Of a DNA stretch of 64,000 nucleotides, positions 51,575-59,562 are shown piece after piece; the stretch's first letter is position 1, and each line of letters starts with the position of its first letter. The DNA is taken from assembly GCA_965209055.1 (NCBI GenBank), contig OZ242374.1:1664001-1728000 (forward strand), read 5' to 3'. This DNA comes from Acidobacteriota bacterium (lineage in GTDB: Bacteria; Acidobacteriota; UBA6911; RPQK01; JAJDTT01). A program made the position numbers and the translations under genes. The notes under the pieces are model-generated. The model was not told the DNA's origin, searched no databases, and saw only the letters and a list, made by a program, of their open reading frames with translations.

Positions 51575-51761
51575 CCGATGGCGTTGGATGGAGTGCCGAC
51601 CCTGCACCCGGTAAGGCGGAAGAATGTCTCCCAATCTCTGACGGTCGAGAAGTTCCACCGGGAGTGCCTGCGGATGGCGGAGTTCCCGCTGGGCGCGCGA
51701 TCGGCGACAGGTCCGAAGGGCCACAGGCGGGCGCAGAGGAAGACGGTCTGGAACCTATTTA

Positions 51762-51790
51762 GCCTACGATAAGTTGATCTTATCGGACCC
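51762..51790. other. dif/Xer-like site (7-bp spacer)
   Basis: GCCTACGATAA-GTTGATC-TTATCGGACCC. Confidence 0.4.
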
Positions 51791-51902
51791 TGATCCCTCT
51801 CGGGGGCCTCTGACCCGCTTTTCCTAGGCCGGATTTCCAGGCAGGTCGGCGCTGATTCACGCGCCCCGAGAGAAACGGACAAACCCTCCTCTTCCCCGCA
51901 GG

Positions 51903-51947
51903 GACTCCGTTAATTTCAGTTAACGGATGTTCTCCAGAGACTCGCCG
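51903..51947. repeat. recombination-site-like repeat, left of LRR cassette
   Basis: TCCGTTAA-TTTCAG-TTAACGGA palindrome; about 38 bp repeated imperfectly at 59732-59769. Confidence 0.65.
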
Positions 51948-51968
51948 TCCCCAGCTATTCTCGGCAGG

Positions 51969-52559
51969 TCATCGGAGAACTGGAACCACGGGCAAGGTCG
52001 TGAAGATACGGTTGTCGGCGTCCATCTCCAGGGCCAACCCCGTGAACCTCCCGATGTCTGGCACGGTGCAGCGCACGGACCCCTCGAAGTCCGAAGTGAT
52101 GGTCTTGGCGAACAGCTCGTGGATGAACTGCGCCGTCTGTCCGTTGCCGGCTATTGAAATTTCCTGCTCTTCCAATGCCCTGCCGGCGCGCATCAGTTGG
52201 CATGTGACCTTGATCGCATTCTTCGTCAGGTTGCGGATGGCCATCCCTGTGCGAATTCCTCTGATTTGGTGTCGAGCCGGGAAGATTGCATCCTGGACGG
52301 CCTCACTGGCGCCGACTCCTGCGACGCCAATCTCTGGGTGGTCGAACCGCAGGAACCCACCGATTGGACCGTCTGCGACAACCTTCACCGAGCCAGTTGT
52401 CAGATCCCCCCGGCCGTGGGTGGAGATCGTGAGTTCCCCTAGTGGGACCAATGGCGTCTCCACGGTCAAGGCTCCATCGCTCTGGATCTTAAGGCCGATT
52501 ACCAGGTCCAACATCGCCTCAGGAGGAATGAGGGCTCCTTCACCGTCGTAGAATTGAAT
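51969..52559 (-). pseudogene. 3' part of LRR surface-protein gene split by the transposon
   Basis: homologous to the first repeat domain of the 57359-59562 product (TISTHGRGDL, GVAGVG, RIFTTLPVVPV); joins in frame. Confidence 0.92.
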
Positions 52560-52598
52560 GGGGATTATACAGTTGACTAGGCACTCCTGCATTCCTGG

Positions 52599-52898
52599 TC
52601 ACTTGGGGTGAGCAATCTCGAAGCTCACGATCAAAGAAGCCTCGTGACTTTCCCCATCGCCCATCCTTTTGGCTTCTCGCAAAGCTCGGAACGCTCTTTC
52701 CATAACCGTGAGGTCCGCCCTCTCAAGTCTACGATTGTTGCAGATAGGACAACAATCGATGCTTTTTGCTCTGAAGGAAGGGCCAGGCCCTTTCAGTGAG
52801 AAGACCGTTTCGCCCTTACACTTTTCATCAGGGCAGATGACCCGCATCTTAAGAATGTCTTGAGCTCCGAAAACAATCCTTTTTTCCTTCACTATCAT
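52599..52898 (-). CDS. small Cys-rich (Zn-ribbon-like) passenger protein
   Basis: CPDEKC...CPIC; TATAAT-GGAGG directly upstream of ATG. Confidence 0.7.
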   Translation of the reverse strand: MIVKEKRIVFGAQDILKMRVICPDEKCKGETVFSLKGPGPSFRAKSIDCCPICNNRRLERADLTVMERAFRALREAKRMGDGESHEASLIVSFEIAHPK

Positions 52899-52926
52899 AC
52901 CTCCATTATACTAGTATTTTATACAG

Positions 52927-54543
52927 TTATTCGGAAGAATCAGGACACCCTTGTGGAGGATCAGATGCTGAAACGTTTACTGGATCAGTGTCTTTCCAAT
53001 ACGTCACCTTTGCTTCATAGAACTCAGAATAGTTCGGATGTTCAGGCAATTGGAGTTTGTAACCTCTAGGGTGTTTCCAAATGTCATCAGATGGCACCCG
53101 AATAGACTTCTTGTACCAAATAGGTGATCCAGCCCAAGGTCGTTGATAAGTCACTTCCACTGGATCTGCTTCTTCCATTCGTCGGTGATATGCACTGAGA
53201 TTTGGGTTGTCACTACTTGTTGAGCCGGAGAAGGAGCCCGAACCTCCTATCCTTTCGTGCAGGTGTAATTTGGCAGCGGCAAGGCATTGGCTTTCACCGT
53301 ATTCGGTAATCCAAAATATCTGAGCACCGGTTACATAATCGATTATTGGAGCATACCGAGAATTTTGGTGCGCTCGTCTTTTTCCCTCGTACGGAGGGGT
53401 AGGATAAATCTCAATCCTCTGCACGGCGGGTAGTTCTCCTGTTCTGTCTCTTCTAAAAGCTCCGACGTGGAGGGCTTCATCCCCGGAGACGTTATCAGGA
53501 GCATGAGTAGGGCCTACTCCACCATTTTGAGACAGGACATCCCACCAACCGCCTGGAGAACAATCATCTGGAGAAACGGGAGACGGCCCATCCCAAAAAC
53601 GACGCCAACGCAAAGCGTGCCAATCAGCGTTTCCTTGTTCTCGAGGAAACAACTCCAAAACCATTAAGGTTCGAGGCAGGTAGTCTAAATCGTTGTCTAC
53701 TTCAAGCAGATAGTTGGTGAACCTACCAACCACACGACGATTGACTCGATAGAATTCGGAACCCACATTGATCCCAAACTCATAGACTGGTATTACGATT
53801 TCATCAGTCAGGGTACGGACACACTCATGGGTCTCCAAAACTTTGGGATTTAGATGGTCGTATTCTTTAACGGGAGCCAAAGATGCTTCTACACGACTGC
53901 CACGACTGCATTGAGTCTCATCTAGGATAAAACGGTGTATGGAAGATGCTCCTGGACTCAATCCATAATCTCGTATTGGAAGGACGGTTTTGTCTCCGAC
54001 AGGAATGAAAGGCGTCGCAAAGTAACTGCCTGGGTTCTCAATTGGATCGTACTCGGTGATCCTCCATTGTTGGACGCCTTGACAGTCGTTTCCTTTGGTA
54101 TTCGCTTGGAGGTAAGAAAGATGGATAATCTGGCCGTCATGATGATCTTGGTCAAGATCAACACTTAAGTTACATTGCTCATGTATCATATGAGGGATGT
54201 CTCCGTAAGGAGTTGAGAAGACCCCTCCCTTCGCCCCTGTAAGAAACGCAAACGCAATCAAGACCCTCACAACCTTTTTCGATGTGGAGTTCTTTGATTC
54301 GTTCCGGTCCTTAATCCACAAGATAATAGCAATGAGCAAGGCAAAGGGCAGAGCAGTAAATACGAGTGTTGCTAAGATTGCAGCAATACCTAATCCGCTC
54401 AGTGTCAACCCGAGCAGGATAGATCCTAACGATCCGCTGGCGGCAAGTATGACACCACCTGCGATTATAAGAACTGCAACTAACCCGTGTATACCTTCCT
54501 TATTGTTGAGTATCCCTTCGCACATCTCCCGGAAATCTCGCAT
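52927..54543 (-). CDS. 538-aa membrane-anchored hypothetical passenger protein
   Basis: long ORF in low-GC DNA, GAGGAGG RBS, N-terminal TM helices. Confidence 0.75.
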   Translation of the reverse strand: MRDFREMCEGILNNKEGIHGLVAVLIIAGGVILAASGSLGSILLGLTLSGLGIAAILATLVFTALPFALLIAIILWIKDRNESKNSTSKKVVRVLIAFAFLTGAKGGVFSTPYGDIPHMIHEQCNLSVDLDQDHHDGQIIHLSYLQANTKGNDCQGVQQWRITEYDPIENPGSYFATPFIPVGDKTVLPIRDYGLSPGASSIHRFILDETQCSRGSRVEASLAPVKEYDHLNPKVLETHECVRTLTDEIVIPVYEFGINVGSEFYRVNRRVVGRFTNYLLEVDNDLDYLPRTLMVLELFPREQGNADWHALRWRRFWDGPSPVSPDDCSPGGWWDVLSQNGGVGPTHAPDNVSGDEALHVGAFRRDRTGELPAVQRIEIYPTPPYEGKRRAHQNSRYAPIIDYVTGAQIFWITEYGESQCLAAAKLHLHERIGGSGSFSGSTSSDNPNLSAYHRRMEEADPVEVTYQRPWAGSPIWYKKSIRVPSDDIWKHPRGYKLQLPEHPNYSEFYEAKVTYWKDTDPVNVSASDPPQGCPDSSE

Positions 54544-54581
54544 GACCCCTCCTCTCGACTTGGGTAGAATGGTGGGATGGA

Positions 54582-54674
54582 GGCAGGGTGGACGAAGATT
54601 GGATTAAGTCGCCCGACTGAAAATCGGGTAGGGTTGAAAGGCCCTCGCGGGTTCAACACCCGTCCCTGCCACCA
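54582..54674 (+). tRNA. atypical class II tRNA, anticodon GAA (Phe), Ser-type long variable arm
   Basis: GGCAGGG/CCCTGCC-A-CCA; CCCGA-CTGAAAA-TCGGG; V-arm AGGGTT-GAAA-GGCCCT; GCGGG-TTCAACA-CCCGT; TAGAAT at 54565. Confidence 0.85.
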
Positions 54675-54704
54675 TCAAGCATCAATATATGATACTTCCC
54701 ATAT

Positions 54705-54968
54705 TCACAGGGGCCAGGTTGGGAACGGTGGAGGAGTCAGCCAGACACACTCATCATTGAAGATTCTCAATGTCCAGCCGTTTTCCTTCTCGCGGAACTT
54801 GGCATGAGCTCTCAACGCTCCTCGGTTGAGGGATTTCACTTTCCATAGCACCGCAGTCTCTTTCGAGAGTCTGGCCAGGTCGGCCCAGGTGATTGGGCCG
54901 TGGACTGACATGAGGTGATCGAGGAATCGAACGTGGTGTTTGAATTCGTGGGGTGCTTTGTGGGACAT
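54705..54968 (-). CDS. 87-aa hypothetical protein downstream of RNA switch copy 1
   Basis: GTAGGAG SD upstream of ATG (MSHKAPH...). Confidence 0.55.
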   Translation of the reverse strand: MSHKAPHEFKHHVRFLDHLMSVHGPITWADLARLSKETAVLWKVKSLNRGALRAHAKFREKENGWTLRIFNDECVWLTPPPFPTWPL

Positions 54969-54976
54969 CGACGGGT

Positions 54977-55209
54977 CTCCTACGCTGTCCAGGTGGAATC
55001 CACCGTGGACTGTTGTCTGCAATCAGCACCCCAGTGCAGATAGGGAGCCGGGTCATCGCAGACAACGCATAGGAAGTCGGAAGTGCTCTTCCAGTCCCTG
55101 CCTATTCGCCCCGTCCGATTCATGACGTCGCACGGTTTATAATGCCTTTTGTATTTGGCAGGTGACCCGGCACAGGATGCGCCACGGGAAACCTACGGCT
55201 GTCTGCAAT
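54977..55209 (-). ncRNA. unrecognised structured RNA motif, copy 1
   Basis: GCCGGGUCA/UGACCCGGC pseudoknot helix, terminal GCAGACA(G/A)C repeats, GUCAUGA loop, anti-SD. Confidence 0.7.
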
Positions 55210-55313
55210 GCCGATCATAACAGACAGGACTGGAACGCTCAACTGCCGCTACTCTCGGGAACGGCTCCTCCCTACGCGGGGCAGAGCCCGCCATGATCGT
55301 GAGTCCAACAACC

Positions 55314-55553
55314 ACCTCCTACGTTGCCCGAAAAATTAGCAATCAAAACCAAAATGGCGATGCCTCCGAGCGGGTTGTCTACGCCGACGATCCCACGTCT
55401 GCACATTGTGGGAGCCGGGTCATTGCAGACAACACGTAGGAAGTGAAGTTGCTACTTATTTACTCAGCAAGGTCATGACTCCTTGCGATTACGAGCTATT
55501 GCATTCAGTAGCTGACCCGGCACACTTGCGGGAGAACCCTTAGCGTTGTCTAC
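55314..55553 (-). ncRNA. unrecognised structured RNA motif, copy 2
   Basis: same architecture as copy 1 with sequence-divergent but still paired stems. Confidence 0.7.
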
Positions 55554-55666
55554 GGGTGGATCTTACTGGAAGGAGGGCTGGATTGCAAACCCGCCCCACC
55601 CACAAAATTTTTCGAGCACTCGAAATACTTCTGAGGTTTGCAGTACAATACAGGTTACAACGAAGA

Positions 55667-55753
55667 TGGCAGGCGCCCCAGGCAGGATTCGAACCTGCAA
55701 CCTTCGGCTGCGATACCGTTGCTCATCCATCTGAGCTTCTGGGGCGCTTCGCC
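55667..55753 (-). ncRNA. tRNA-Arg-like RNA with degenerate anticodon arm and extended acceptor
   Basis: GCGCCCCAG/CTGGGGCGC, GCTC-AGATGGAT-GAGC, GCAGG-TTCGAAT-CCTGC, loop ATCGCA; TATAAT at 55754-55759. Confidence 0.75.
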
Positions 55754-55864
55754 ATTATAACCTACTCGGAGGGCAGAAAATGCGTCGTGGGAAGAACCGC
55801 AAGCCAGTTGACATTTTAGCCTTGGCAATGCAGAAAGCGCATCAGCAGGTCAGAGACGGGGACC

Positions 55865-56836
55865 TCAATTCTGAGACTCGTCCGACTCATCATCAGCAGT
55901 CAGATCAAGATACATCAGACGACGGCCGACCAGTCCCGCCACGATGTGCTTCATCTGATCAATAGTATCCAGCTCTCGGATATTGTGACGCTTGGCGAAC
56001 TCACTGACGTATCGGTGTAGGTGCTTTTCACTCATCTTGTGGAAAGTGCCCGTGTAGCCGCGTTTTAACATCGACCAAAAGGACTCCATGCCATTCGTGT
56101 GTGCCATGCCTCTGACATACTCGCCTACTGTGTGCTTGACAGATTCCCGTCTATGGCCCATCCAATCGTAGGCTGGATTCTCGTCTGTGTATGATCTCAC
56201 CCACAAGACAGAGTTTTCCAGGATGAACGTGGAAAGTGTTGCCTTGGTTGTATCGGGAACAACCCTAGCCCTGATCTGATTGGTCGGACGATCTTTCATT
56301 CCCACAACTGCGACTTTGCCAACAGACCCTCGACCAGAGAATTGAGCCCGGCGCTTGGCACTCATATTCCGCCTCTTGCCTCCAATGTAAGTCTCGTCAA
56401 TCTCCACCGGCCCGGACAGAGTCTCTGAGTCGTCCTCGGTCCAGGATTGCCGAAGTCGATGAAGCATGAACCACGCTGTGGCTTGTGTCACATCGATGTC
56501 TCGGTGGAGTTTCATTGAGGAGACTCCCTTGAGGTTCGTAATGTAGATGAAGATCGCCAAGGCCCATTTCTGTAACGGGACGTGGGATCTGGCCAAGGTC
56601 GTGCCAGTGCGGACTGAAAAGTAGCGCCGACAGTCAGAACACCAGTAAGGTTGAGGCCGTCGTTTCGGAGTCTCGTTCGTCTTGACGCTGCCGCAATGCC
56701 CACAGCATCGCTCATCGGGCCAGAGTACGGACTCGAACCATTTTTCCGCGGATTCCTCATCCGGGAACATCTTGAAAAGTTGGATCAGTGAGATTCCTTG
56801 TCGGTAAAACTTGCCTGGAGCTTTTGCTTTCTTCAT
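55865..56836 (-). CDS. IS1595 family DDE transposase
   Basis: Zn ribbon CGHC..CSDC, GVSSMKLHRD, VEIDETYIGG, YTDE, HTNGMESFWSMLKRG. Confidence 0.96.
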   Translation of the reverse strand: MKKAKAPGKFYRQGISLIQLFKMFPDEESAEKWFESVLWPDERCCGHCGSVKTNETPKRRPQPYWCSDCRRYFSVRTGTTLARSHVPLQKWALAIFIYITNLKGVSSMKLHRDIDVTQATAWFMLHRLRQSWTEDDSETLSGPVEIDETYIGGKRRNMSAKRRAQFSGRGSVGKVAVVGMKDRPTNQIRARVVPDTTKATLSTFILENSVLWVRSYTDENPAYDWMGHRRESVKHTVGEYVRGMAHTNGMESFWSMLKRGYTGTFHKMSEKHLHRYVSEFAKRHNIRELDTIDQMKHIVAGLVGRRLMYLDLTADDESDESQN

Positions 56837-56950
56837 TGTCTCCCTCTCAATTTCCTGAACATTTTATCACAGGACCCTGACATTTTTCTGTAGTAAGTCC
56901 TTTGTTATGTTTAGTTTACACAGATTGTCGTGAGGGCAGTACAATAAAAC

Positions 56951-57092
56951 ATGATGGCGGAGGGATGGACACAGCGGGGTACGATCCCGCGACCTCCCAG
57001 TTCTAAGTGCCCGTGGTAGGAAAAATTTTGGGCACCAGAGCCGGGTGTTCTGCCAGCATAAAGAACTATGCGGCCTTCGTCTCCGCCATCAT
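56951..57092 (-). ncRNA. tRNA-like RNA with hairpin inserted in anticodon loop and extended acceptor helix
   Basis: GGCCGCA/TGTGTCC, GTTC..GAAC, CCCGG/CTGGG, AGGTC, GCGGG-ATCGTAC-CCCGC; flanking ATGATGGCGGAG/CTCCGCCATCAT; TAGAAT at 57091-57096. Confidence 0.65.
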
Positions 57093-57127
57093 TCTACCAG
57101 ATTTCCAAGGGGAAGGGAAGATGGTGA

Positions 57128-57292
57128 GGCGCAAAGATTCCTGGCTTTCGGCTCTCCCAAGTGGCTTTCTTGTGGCAAGGGCCTGGGCTGGGGTTACATG
57201 CCCTGGAAGATCGCATCAAACTGGGCGCAAAGATTCCTGGCCCGGGCCTGGGGGAACCTGAAGCTGGGCCTAGGCTGGGGTTACGCGCCCTG
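57128..57292 (+). repeat. two tandem copies of a hairpin motif
   Basis: GGCGCAAAGATTCCTGGC...GGGCCT(G/A)GGCTGGGGTTAC..GCCCTG at 57128-57205 and 57223-57292. Confidence 0.7.
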
Positions 57293-57358
57293 TTGACCAT
57301 CGTAGCGGGTTCGATGTCTTTGGTCAATCAGGGGTACCTAGTCAACTGTATAATCCCC

Positions 57359-59562
57359 AATTGAATGACTGGGTGAATCGGGCCCGATGCTACATTCACG
57401 AGCACCAAGTCGGAAGTGATGGAGGAACCGTTGGCGAAATGGGGGAAATGCAAATGCATGTTGTCCTGCGTGCGCATCGGTGGAACCGGAACCACGGGCA
57501 AGGTCGTGAAGATCCGGTTCTGGAAATCCATCTCCAAAGCCACACCGGTGAACAGAGAATCCTCGGGAGCCATGCACCGAACCGATCCCACGAAGTTCCC
57601 CGTATAGGTCTCGGGGAATAATTCATCAATGAACTGGGCCGTCTGGCCGTGTCCAGCCAGCGGGATATCCACGTCGCCACGCAAGTTGTTCCTTTGCGTC
57701 AGTTGGCAACTCACGGTGATCGGATCCTCTCCCCGGTTACGAATCGCCACTCCAGTATTGATTCCTGATTCTTGGCGCCGCACAGGGAAAATCGCGTCCT
57801 GTACGGCTATTCCCGTACCCACCCCGGCGACTCCCATGTCCGAGCTGTCAAAGCGCAGAACTCCCCCGATGGGACCGTCCGCCACAGCCCTTGCCGATCC
57901 CGTGACCAAATCCCCTCGGCCATGGGTCGAGATCGTGAGTTGTCCCAGGGGTTCTATTTCCTTCCGTACGGTCAGGGACCCGTCGGCCCGGATCAAACGA
58001 TCCTCTCCGACATCCACTATGGATGCCGGGTCTATGAGGTTTCCCTCGGCGTCGAAAAAGTAGAGGGCCGGCTGGATGGGAGTGGCTCCAACATTCACGA
58101 ACACCAACTCGGAGCGAATGGACGCCCCGTTGGCAAATTGGGAGAATTCCAAGGAAAGTCCTGCCAGTACAGTCAGCGGCTCGGCAGATCTGATAAACGT
58201 GTAACCAAGACTGCCCCCAAGCTGGAGCGGGAGCTGTGCGATCTCGACGGTGACCGGAGAAGTCGTTCCAGACTGTCGAGCCACCGAATAAACGTCGCTT
58301 GTCTCTCGCCCTGCGGGAATCGTGACGTGGGATGAATCCCCGCGAAGCATGCCGTTGGTTACAATGATCCGCAGACGGATCTCAAAGGGTGCGCCAGTAG
58401 GCACTCTAAGCTGGAATCGGCCTGGAGCCACCCATTCCATAAAAACGTTGATGAGTAGACGATGCGCCGGATTGTTTCTCATCGTGAAAATTTGCATGGA
58501 AGAGAGACCGAAGAAGATGCCATCTGGCAGGCTGGTCAGCCTATTGTTGTCCAGATAGAGAGTTCGTAGTGAGGAAAGACCGGAGAACGCTCCCGCCGGC
58601 AAACTAACCAGTTTATTCCCACTCAGTACAAGCAGTTGCAGTGTAGAAAGTTCAGCGAAGGCTCCTACCGGAAGGGTAGTCAGCGCACTGTCATTCAGGA
58701 GGAGAGTTCGTATTGAGGTGAGGCCGGAGAACGCTCCCGCCGGCAAGCTGGTCAATTCATTCCCGCCCAGATGGAGATGTATCAGCGAGGAGAGGCCGGT
58801 GAAGGCCCCCACCGGCAGGGTGGTCAGCGCATTGTGAGACAGGCGGAGAAGCTTTAGCGAGGAGAGGCCGGTGAAGGCCCCAGCTGACAGGTTCATCAGC
58901 CCGGTCAGCGGCGTGTTGGGAAAGGATGAGTTGGAAGCACTAGCCAGGTTGAGTTCTTGCAGTGAGGAGAGGCCGGTGAAGGTCCCCGCCATCAGCCCGG
59001 TTAGCTTAGTAAATGACAGGTTGAGTTCTTGCAACGAGGGGAGGCCGGTGAAGGCCCCAGCCGGCAGACTGGTCAACTTTGTACTAGACAGATCGAGAGT
59101 TTCCAGTGAGGAGAGCCCGGTGAACACTCCCGCCGGTAGAGTGGTAAGGGGAGTCAGGTTCAAATAGAGCGTTGTCACCGAAGAAAGTCCCGAGAAATCG
59201 CCGACTCTCAACGCTGTCACTGGTGGCGGCGGCCGTCGTTCGCGGCTGGGGTTGTTCCAATCGGGCGAAGAGTAATACCCGCCGTGAAAAAACTCGCCCT
59301 CAATCGCAGCCAGATGAACCTCGGTCACGTCGGTGCAATCATCTATCCCCGACACCAGACTCACGATCTCGTCGCGCACCTCCGGGGTCCTGTCGCAGAC
59401 GGGGACGATCTGAGCTACGACTGGCTCTGACGCGGCCAGCAGGCCCAAGCTCAAGGTGACGGTTAACAGCGAGCTTCTGGATCGCTGCCGGCAACGATGC
59501 AGAATCTTCGAAAAGTGGACTGACATCTGAATGGCTCCTCCAGGTAGACGGTAGCGGCTCAT
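57359..59562 (-). pseudogene. leucine-rich-repeat secreted protein, 5' part (interrupted by the transposon)
   Basis: signal peptide, VCDRTP.VRD.I cap, LTSLPAGAF.GLSSL..L.L..N 24-aa repeats. Confidence 0.92.

Follow-up and report, generated by a model that had tools for sequence, protein, structure and literature searches.

The window analysed here is a 64,000-nucleotide stretch of contig OZ242374.1 from an Acidobacteriota genome (assembly GCA_965209055.1), within which an IS1595-family transposon carries a class II tRNA gene with the anticodon GAA (referred to below as the GAA tRNA), protein genes and further tRNA-like genes (Table 1). The genome of the window is designated G000, with C1 denoting its contig coordinates, and G005 is a genome of the same genus. 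The transposon terminates at both ends in GGGGATTATACAGTTGACTAGG, which belongs to an inverted repeat of 31 nt with 94% complementarity, and is bounded by an 8-bp target duplication. Its G+C content falls from ∼0.63 in the flanks to 0.51–0.54 inside, over roughly 52–58 kb. The transposase was matched to Pfam DDE_Tnp_IS1595 (E 2e-35), together with Zn_ribbon_IS1595, and to NCBIfam transpos_IS1595 (176.9 bits; cut-off 75). Insertion sequences of the IS1595 family combine a DDE_Tnp_IS1595 transposase with terminal inverted repeats, a target duplication that is typically 8 bp long, and passenger genes, and the window element is alike in these respects. We know of no described member of the family that has tRNA passengers.

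The transposon splits a gene for a leucine-rich repeat (LRR) protein. Self-comparison of the genome matched 51759-52493 to C1:4354684-4355418 at 82% and 57371-58459 to C1:4355489-4356577 at 80%, and in the intact LRR paralogue (C1:4354684-4356577) the matches to both split parts are adjacent. At the uninterrupted site in G000 (C1:4355084-4355888) the flanks abut and the 8 bp are present once, and contiguous flanks with a single copy of the 8 bp were found in two G000 paralogues and one G005 homologue. Because it lies inside an element with inverted repeats, a target duplication and an IS1595 transposase, the GAA tRNA is cargo of an IS1595-family transposon that transposed into the LRR gene. 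The insertion is recent. These features strongly support the initial annotation of the window, made from the letters alone, in calling the tRNA mobile.

Table 1. Features of the transposon and of its insertion site, in window coordinates.
Feature	Position	Strand	Basis
IS1595-family transposon with cargo, 4,799 bp	52560..57358		inverted repeats, ends read, composition
Target-site duplication, left copy, 8 bp, AATTGAAT	52552..52559		sequence read
Target-site duplication, right copy, 8 bp, AATTGAAT	57359..57366		sequence read
IS1595/ISXO2-type DDE transposase, 323 aa	55865..56836	-	Pfam and NCBIfam
LRR-protein gene, 3' part, split by insertion	51969..52592	-	paralogue match
LRR-protein gene, 5' part, split by insertion	57328..59562	-	Pfam LRR_8 and related families, paralogue match
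Class II tRNA gene, 7/5, anticodon GAA, A73, encoded CCA	54582..54674	+	sequence, ARAGORN, RF00005, fold, model R1, compensatory changes
Promoter-like site ATGACC-17-TAGAAT	54542..54570	+	consensus match, 9/12 positions
Cargo protein P0001, 538 aa	52927..54543	-	N-terminal membrane helices, then Cys-containing beta-rich domain
Putative cargo open reading frame P0002, 99 aa, CxxC...CxxC motifs	52599..52898	-	open reading frame
Cargo open reading frame P0003, about 90–105 aa	54705..55022	-	open reading frame
Second tRNA-like gene, Arg-like body	55674..55745	-	Rfam 48 bits; uncalled by ARAGORN
Third tRNA-like gene, class I-like body	56966..57075	-	Rfam 29.3 bits; uncalled by ARAGORN

The GAA tRNA gene at 54582-54674 specifies a complete 93-nt cloverleaf: GGCAGGG-UG-GAC-G-AAGAUUGGAUUA-A-GUC-G-CCCGA-CUGAAAA-UCGGG-U-AGGGUU-GAAA-GGCCCU-C-GCGGG-UUCAACA-CCCGU-CCCUGCC-A-CCA. 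A 7-bp acceptor stem (GGCAGGG/CCCUGCC, including C3-G70) is followed by U8 and G9, a D stem of 3 bp (G10-C25, A11-U24 and C12-G23, closing on G13.A22) and a D loop enlarged to 12 nt, in which G18G19 lie within GGAUUAAG. The 5-bp anticodon stem (CCCGA/UCGGG) holds the loop CUGAAAA, with U33, the anticodon GAA and A37. An 18-nt variable region consists of U44, a 6-bp stem (AGGGUU/GGCCCU) capped by GAAA, and C48; the T stem has 5 bp (GCGGG/CCCGU), the T loop is UUCAACA, and the gene ends in A73 and a genomically encoded CCA. The cloverleaf described in the initial annotation (93 nt with anticodon GAA, CCA, A73 and C3-G70, a large D loop, and a variable arm of 6 bp between an unpaired U and an unpaired C) is present in every particular. 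Its description of the fold as 7/5, unlike the 8/4 or 9/3 folds of the allo-tRNAs, is correct by sequence, Rfam match and computed fold; an 8/4 or 9/3 fold is impossible because U8 has no partner.

ARAGORN called a tRNA with anticodon GAA at 54587-54674, a 5' boundary that differs from 54582. Only with permissive filters, applied to a 351-base stretch, did Rfam RF00005 give a match (44 bits over 54582-54671; E 2.4e-8; gathering score 29); the gene at 54582 was not detected when the whole window was scanned with default filters. This miss may be a reason why tRNA genes of this kind are not annotated. The minimum-free-energy fold (-40.5 kcal/mol, z = -3.09, with 1 of 200 shuffles equally stable) recovers four of the five helices, namely the acceptor, anticodon, variable and T arms. 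All translation features are kept (7/5, G18G19, U54U55C56, U33, A37, a 7-nt anticodon loop and CCA). Upstream, the TAGAAT box of the promoter-like site ends 11 nt 5' of the tRNA start. Promoter-like sites numbered three, where shuffles gave an expectation of 0.5; 8–15 nt upstream of each of the three tRNA genes in the window element there is a TAGAAT or TATAAT box, and a TAGAAT, TATAAT or TAAAAT box stands ahead of 7 of the 8 tRNA-like genes in a related element of G005.

That related element was found by scanning one genome per species for the transposase, which gave 32 related loci. ARAGORN tRNAs are present at four of these and irregular ones only at locus L015, in G005/G061 of the same genus as G000, where the transposase is 79% identical to that of the window. 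The G005 element (8,631 bp, L054:4444-13074) has inverted repeats with the related end GGGGACTACACAGATGTCTAGG and an 8-bp duplication, TATCCATT. Its cargo comprises a homologue of P0001, an open reading frame resembling P0003, and at least eight tRNA-like genes. Among the latter are a class II GAA tRNA (L054:6664-6752) that is the homologue of the window GAA tRNA; a class I-like GAA tRNA with T loop UCCGAAG; two class II tRNAs of Ser geometry with anticodon CAG (discriminators U73 and G73); a 104-nt tRNA-like; and three Cys-like tRNAs with U73 and anticodons GGC, CGC and AGC, each with the triplet GCA at 35-37. The two GAA tRNAs of G005, one class II and the other class I-like, have an identical 17-nt anticodon stem-loop in different bodies.

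The window and G005 copies of the class II GAA tRNA have a local identity of 77% over ∼100 nt (23% differing), with a MAFFT mean column identity of 87%. CUGAAAA, U8, A14, G18G19, U54U55C56, A58 and CCA are identical in both, and the copies have in common an unusual ACA ending of the T loop, a 3' UCA and the upstream TAGAAT box. All 23 cloverleaf pairs are standard in both copies and none is broken. Both partners have changed in six pairs (3-70, 6-67, 11-24, 31-39, 51-63 and the first pair of the variable stem) and a single partner in one further pair. In a slid-register control, in which the 3' partners were moved by 1–3 columns, there were no double-changed pairs and pairing was 33–52%. Because all 23 pairs are kept while six have changed on both sides, the comparison argues strongly, within a small sample of two sequences only, that the fold is under selection. 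Compensatory change also bears on whether the gene might be a decaying pseudogene, a former tRNA-Ser with an anticodon mutation that hitch-hikes on the transposon. A single base change leads from GGA (Ser) to GAA, the D loop is enlarged, the Ser model score given below is less than that of true tRNA-Ser, and the neighbouring tRNA-likes are clearly aberrant; but six double changes without a broken pair, between copies so far diverged, and the same GAA loop, CCA and TAGAAT box in both elements make decay very improbable.

For wider searches, a covariance model of the family (R1) was used in place of a BLAST-type tRNA search, which was insensitive: in 60 relatives it overlooked the G005 homologue and returned nothing but T-arm matches of 32-33 nt, from 3 genomes. 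Model R1 gave 115.6 bits to the window GAA tRNA and 108.5 bits to the G005 copy. Family members were found in 2 of 151 relatives (G000 and G005), ordinary class II tRNAs were matched in 149, and nothing outside the family scored above 75.9 bits. The best non-family matches in these 151 genomes were 90-nt sequences at 70–76 bits, the two from G000 being tRNA-Ser(UGA) and tRNA-Ser(GGA). Among 151 phylum-sampled genomes only G000 itself passed E 1e-17. Note that the unpublished genome G016 enters denominators only. A pattern scan based on the two homologues gave three matches in metagenome contigs, none of them a tRNA by ARAGORN or Rfam, and none in viral contigs; a blastn search of plasmids gave no matches.

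Amino-acid identity was judged with two further covariance models, R2 built from host tRNA-Ser isoacceptors (n = 4) and R3 from host tRNA-Leu isoacceptors (n = 5). Misalignment of the Ser(CGA) D arm excluded MAFFT alignments A3 and A4 from the models. True tRNA-Ser (the four training sequences and five from other genomes) scored 80.9-104.1 bits on R2 and 44.2-55.7 bits on R3, and true tRNA-Leu 41.3-57.9 and 86.7-99 bits, respectively. Host Tyr scored 64.6 and 50.2 bits, host Phe 40.6 and 45.3, the window GAA tRNA 67.7 and 57.4, and its G005 homologue 75.3 and 63.4. By these scores the GAA tRNA pair is nearer to Ser than to Leu by 10-12 bits, yet outside the true-Ser range. Host tRNAs scored on R1 were ranked with Ser(UGA) at 60.5 bits, Ser(GGA) at 59.2, Leu(CAA) third-best at 53.0, Tyr at 46.4, Phe at 29.7 and Sec at 21.1. 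The variable stem is flanked by one unpaired base on either side (1+1) in all four host tRNA-Ser, by 1+2 in all five host tRNA-Leu and by 1+3 in the single host tRNA-Tyr. Both GAA tRNAs are 1+1, and in the window copy the stem length (6 bp) and the GAAA loop are those of host Ser(UGA). The acceptor stem has G1-C72 and G2-C71, which are seryl-tRNA synthetase (SerRS) identity elements according to work in E. coli. Judged from its sequence, the body is built as in bacterial tRNA-Ser (class II, 1+1 variable arm, G1-C72, G2-C71 and an GGNUUAAG D loop), and it is joined to a Phe-type anticodon loop, CUGAAAA; the anticodon is GAA rather than NGA or GCU.

Charging by leucyl-tRNA synthetase (LeuRS), which would result in Phe-to-Leu substitution, had been raised in the initial annotation on account of A73. 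SerRS and LeuRS both ignore the anticodon; according to identity studies in E. coli, A73 is a requirement of LeuRS, bacterial SerRS being the more tolerant enzyme. In addition to A73, the third-best place of Leu(CAA) on R1 and the presence of Leu-type tRNAs with non-Leu anticodons (R3 82.1 and 75.9 bits) at a second IS1595-like locus of G000 favour leucine. Against these stand the R3 score of the window GAA tRNA, well below that of any true Leu, its 1+1 rather than 1+2 variable arm, and a D loop (GGAUUAAG) without GGCAGA. Since the discriminator differs between copies (A73 in the window, G73 in G005), an identity common to both would more easily be Ser than Leu. The Leu alternative is thus disfavoured by G73 and by the Ser-type arm of both copies, and we consider it extremely improbable.

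We give slightly less than an even chance to the reading that the locus is a real, selectively maintained tRNA gene whose product would be serylated at least partly and would cause low-level Phe-to-Ser missense at UUU/UUC codons. We infer that the GAA tRNA would be transcribed from its own putative TAGAAT promoter, processed to a CCA-ending tRNA, serylated at least in part by the host SerRS (an enzyme indifferent to the anticodon), delivered by EF-Tu, and used in decoding in competition with canonical tRNA-Phe, with low-level Phe-to-Ser substitution as the outcome. The meaning of UUU/UUC within the element was read from a codon comparison that used 22 of the 32 transposase loci, after removal of L026 and L030 (second copies in genomes already represented) and of L031 and L040-L046 (weak or partial); L016 and L039, which have in-frame stops, were then dropped and L015 was shown separately, leaving 19. 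At the 12 UUU/UUC codons of the window transposase, F is the commonest residue of the 19 other IS1595 transposases at eight and Y at two. The remaining two fall in gapped or variable columns, and Ser occurs at only one variable position (4 of 19). Recoding of the element's own genes was therefore rejected, the UUY columns being mostly F or Y. Because UUY means Phe in the element, a serylated GAA tRNA would genuinely mistranslate, and would do so in its own transposase.

Several observations weigh against serine charging and its use in decoding. Harm to the element's own transposase would follow from Ser insertion at UUU/UUC. The description of the window copy as Ser-shaped in the initial annotation holds for its variable-arm geometry and for its higher score on R2 than on R3; it does not extend to the R2 score itself, which is below that of every true tRNA-Ser tested and about level with host Tyr, nor to A11-U24 and A73. 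G73 and C11-G24, expected of tRNA-Ser, are both present in the G005 copy, which also has G15/C48 as Ser tRNAs have, and host Ser tRNAs that pair 11-24 use the C-G type. A73, A11-U24, C3-G70 and three extra D-loop bases are departures of the window copy from host Ser tRNAs. Plain identity is 70-73% to both Ser and Leu, without separation. Moreover, the main determinants of phenylalanyl-tRNA synthetase (PheRS) are GAA and A73, both found here, which makes Phe charging plausible. Finally, several irregular acidobacterial tRNAs, found near toxin-antitoxin systems or transposons, are described as inactive, being either charged yet unused in translation or uncharged (Mukai 2017, PMC5389517).

Were PheRS to charge the GAA tRNA by tolerating its long variable arm, the gene would be an oddly shaped extra tRNA-Phe and there would be no mistranslation. 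The anticodon loop CUGAAAA is identical to that of host tRNA-Phe, the G+C content of the element is lower than that of the host, and the Phe codons of the transposase mean Phe, all of which agree with such a supplementary role. The body, however, is class II and lacks the 5-nt variable loop typical of bacterial tRNA-Phe, whereas host tRNA-Phe is class I and reaches only 29.7 bits on R1; the G005 homologue has G73; and a canonical tRNA-Phe is already present in the host. In the sister element, the CAG tRNAs of Ser geometry and the Cys-like tRNAs with Ala anticodons point to a pattern of mismatch rather than of supplementation. Although we hold it to be quite unlikely, Phe or dual charging of the window copy is a serious rival to serine charging.

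The inactivity of irregular acidobacterial tRNAs would also fit a tRNA-shaped, non-decoding RNA, acting as a decoy or sponge for a tRNA-targeting enzyme (a toxin, anticodon nuclease or modification enzyme) or as a regulator of the transposon or of its cargo protein. The 17-nt anticodon stem-loop common to two different bodies in G005 fits an anticodon arm that is the recognised part, and several companion tRNA-likes have non-canonical T or anticodon loops. The GAA tRNA itself nevertheless retains every translation feature, and Pfam, NCBIfam and PADLOC scans of the window element found no toxin, nuclease or antitoxin families. This explanation is unlikely in our estimate.

Class II tRNAs with the anticodon of another amino acid are known from eukaryotes. 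One is the tRNA-Ser(CAG) of CTG-clade yeasts, which recalls the CAG tRNAs of Ser geometry in the G005 element. Others are the nev-tRNAs of nematodes (PMC3333845). Both are chromosomal and fixed in their lineages; the GAA tRNA, by contrast, is bacterial, rare (two genomes) and transposon-borne. A human tRNA-Ser-AGA-2-3 variant, G35A, inserts Ser at Phe codons and, like the GAA tRNA, joins a serine body to a phenylalanine anticodon; it is a eukaryotic chromosomal point variant with anticodon AAA, whereas the GAA tRNA is diverged, conserved, mobile and bacterial (PMC12993449).

The closest comparison is with the allo-tRNAs of Acidobacteria, Clostridia and Proteobacteria, which have 8/4 or 9/3 folds, mostly Ser identity and 35 different anticodons, Phe occurring once, in an 8/4 allo-tRNA (Mukai 2017, PMC5389517). 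According to that study, allo-tRNAs of Ser identity with Leu anticodons put Ser in at Leu codons in E. coli, and those of Acidobacteria are associated with transposon-related genes and toxin-antitoxin systems. A long variable arm, probable Ser identity, non-Ser anticodons, association with transposons and acidobacterial hosts are thus common to allo-tRNAs and the GAA tRNA. The long acceptor and anticodon stems of the allo-tRNAs resemble those of tRNA-Sec, and in this they differ from the plain 7/5 fold and 5-bp anticodon stem of the GAA tRNA. A position as IS1595 cargo, with inverted repeats and target duplication, is absent from the text of Mukai 2017 on allo-tRNAs, and its main text mentions neither a class II GAA species nor an IS1595 context. 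The "irregular tRNA polycistrons" of Acidobacteria in the same paper resemble both elements in forming clusters, in being partly 7/5 and in combining bodies with mismatched anticodons, and in one class of irregular tRNAs the cognate triplet is displaced to 35-37, as is GCA in the Cys-like tRNAs of G005. By main-text description the polycistron groups (tRNA0/1/2, G-1 tRNAs with GGU and E-loop tRNAs with GCU) differ from the GAA tRNA; sequences in the supplement may overlap. Literature searches turned up nothing specific, either on tRNA passengers of IS1595 or on bacterial tRNAs of class II or Ser type that have a Phe anticodon. On its sequence features, the locus is best seen as a 7/5 class II GAA variant of the acidobacterial irregular-tRNA phenomenon; what is new here is the IS1595 carrier with its target duplication, the conserved protein partner, putative promoters for each gene and compensatory evolution.

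Natural bacterial tRNAs with a mismatch between body and anticodon are rare, and the best studied of them, the allo-tRNAs, have exotic folds. The ordinary 7/5 cloverleaf of the GAA tRNA is one that the translation machinery should accept. If the tRNA is serylated, horizontal transfer of one small element would suffice for misreading of Phe codons in a new host, and whether mistranslation can be selected, and spread, would thereby be directly testable. For missense or nonsense suppression, the GAA tRNA would also be a small, naturally occurring scaffold. That irregular tRNAs and a conserved cargo protein accompany it suggests a functional module, not an accident. A wider view, possible but doubtful, is that this IS1595 lineage is a mobile "code-perturbation module" in which promoter-equipped, identity-swapped tRNA cassettes, always accompanied by a rare membrane or secreted protein, impose regulated, multi-codon statistical mistranslation. 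The predicted cassettes pair Phe GAA with a Ser body, Leu CAG with a Ser-geometry body, an AGA loop with a Leu body, and Ala anticodons with Cys-like bodies. Were this true, the targets of mistranslation would be the host proteome or the element's own surface-protein cargo, and through transposition the module would supply phenotypic diversity or stress tolerance.

The accompanying protein, P0001, matched no significant family in Pfam, NCBIfam or PADLOC, with a single PADLOC match at E 0.0087. Its AlphaFold model is mediocre (pLDDT 66.7); Foldseek against PDB gave no match at E <= 0.001, and VIA-align gave no fold match, its best Z of 5.8 being confined to a membrane-helix hairpin. P0001 is 37% identical to its homologue in the G005 element, and it has a paralogue next to the second IS1595-like transposase of G000. 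A P0001-family profile matched 2 of 401 phylum-sample genomes, G000 (at two loci) and G005, and 12 clusters among 1.84 billion representative proteins. No family was found for P0002 in Pfam, NCBIfam and PADLOC scans; P0003 has weak translated similarity to an open reading frame of the G005 element (L015:8246-8482).

Of the two other tRNA-like genes in the window element, that at 55674-55745 is nearest to host tRNA-Arg(CCG), at 79% identity, and has a perfect TATAAT box 8 nt upstream. Its anticodon loop, AUCGCA, is aberrant at 6 nt (8 nt if U31.G39 is open), and the Arg anticodon UCG stands at positions 33-35. In the gene at 56966-57075 a hairpin of ∼33-36 nt (GUGCCC...GGGCAC) is inserted in the anticodon loop, and the T loop is the non-canonical AUCGUAC. 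Its G005 homologue is the class I-like GAA tRNA (L054:10271-10349), which is without the insert and has the loop CUGAAAA; the window gene could contain an intron-like insert or be disabled. Between the tRNA-like gene at 55674-55745 and P0003, 55043-55560 holds two copies of a repeat unit (D1 and D2), spaced about 350-367 bp apart, with internal inverted repeats GCCGGGTCA...TGACCCGGC and GCAGACAAC...GTTGTCTGC; the pair is possibly a structured RNA. The 11-mer TATTGTACTGC follows several tRNA cassettes of both elements, 10-25 nt downstream (window 55640-55650 and 56930-56940; L054 about 4870). In G005 the 11-mer belongs to a repeated spacer whose end is the next TAGAAT box; it may signal processing or termination, or may form part of a cassette boundary.

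Related loci were observed elsewhere in G000. At C1:2734863-2739279 (L012/L055) a second IS1595-like transposase, 56% identical, is followed by the two clearly Leu-type class II tRNAs mentioned above. Both have A73; their anticodon loops, UUAGAAA and CUAGAAA, contain the anticodon AGA and, at 33-35, the Leu triplet UAG. After them come an aberrant Gly(GCC)-like tRNA and the P0001 paralogue; terminal inverted repeats were not found at this locus. An anticodon shifted by one position (UGA at 33-35) was also considered for the GAA tRNA and is uninformative there, since U33-G34-A35 reads UGA in every tRNA-Phe. Positions 33-35 read UGA in the Ser body and UAG in the Leu bodies, and the idea of a shifted anticodon was kept for the Leu-like and Cys-like tRNAs. 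A third IS1595-family element (C1:6041919-6045037; L013:4920-8038) spans 3,119 bp, with perfect 29-bp inverted repeats starting GGGGATTATA, a transposase that is 50% identical, and ∼2 kb of cargo in which Rfam found no tRNA at E <= 0.01. The genome, at 63% G+C, has six tRNA-Leu(UAA) genes (C1:477237, 1381642, 1991443, 2104898, 2524782 and 3018716), none with an IS1595 transposase within 2 kb; those at 477237, 1991443 and 2524782 lie within ∼3.5-kb repeats that are 90-93% identical. Finally, a class I-sized tRNA with anticodon GCU, C73 and T loop GUCAAUA is located at C1:1817273-1817345 (-), where an IS1595 transposase is not adjacent. Its anticodon stem, CCCGG/CCGGG, is that of the G005 GAA tRNAs, and it recalls the GCU irregular tRNAs described in the main text of Mukai 2017 (PMC5389517).

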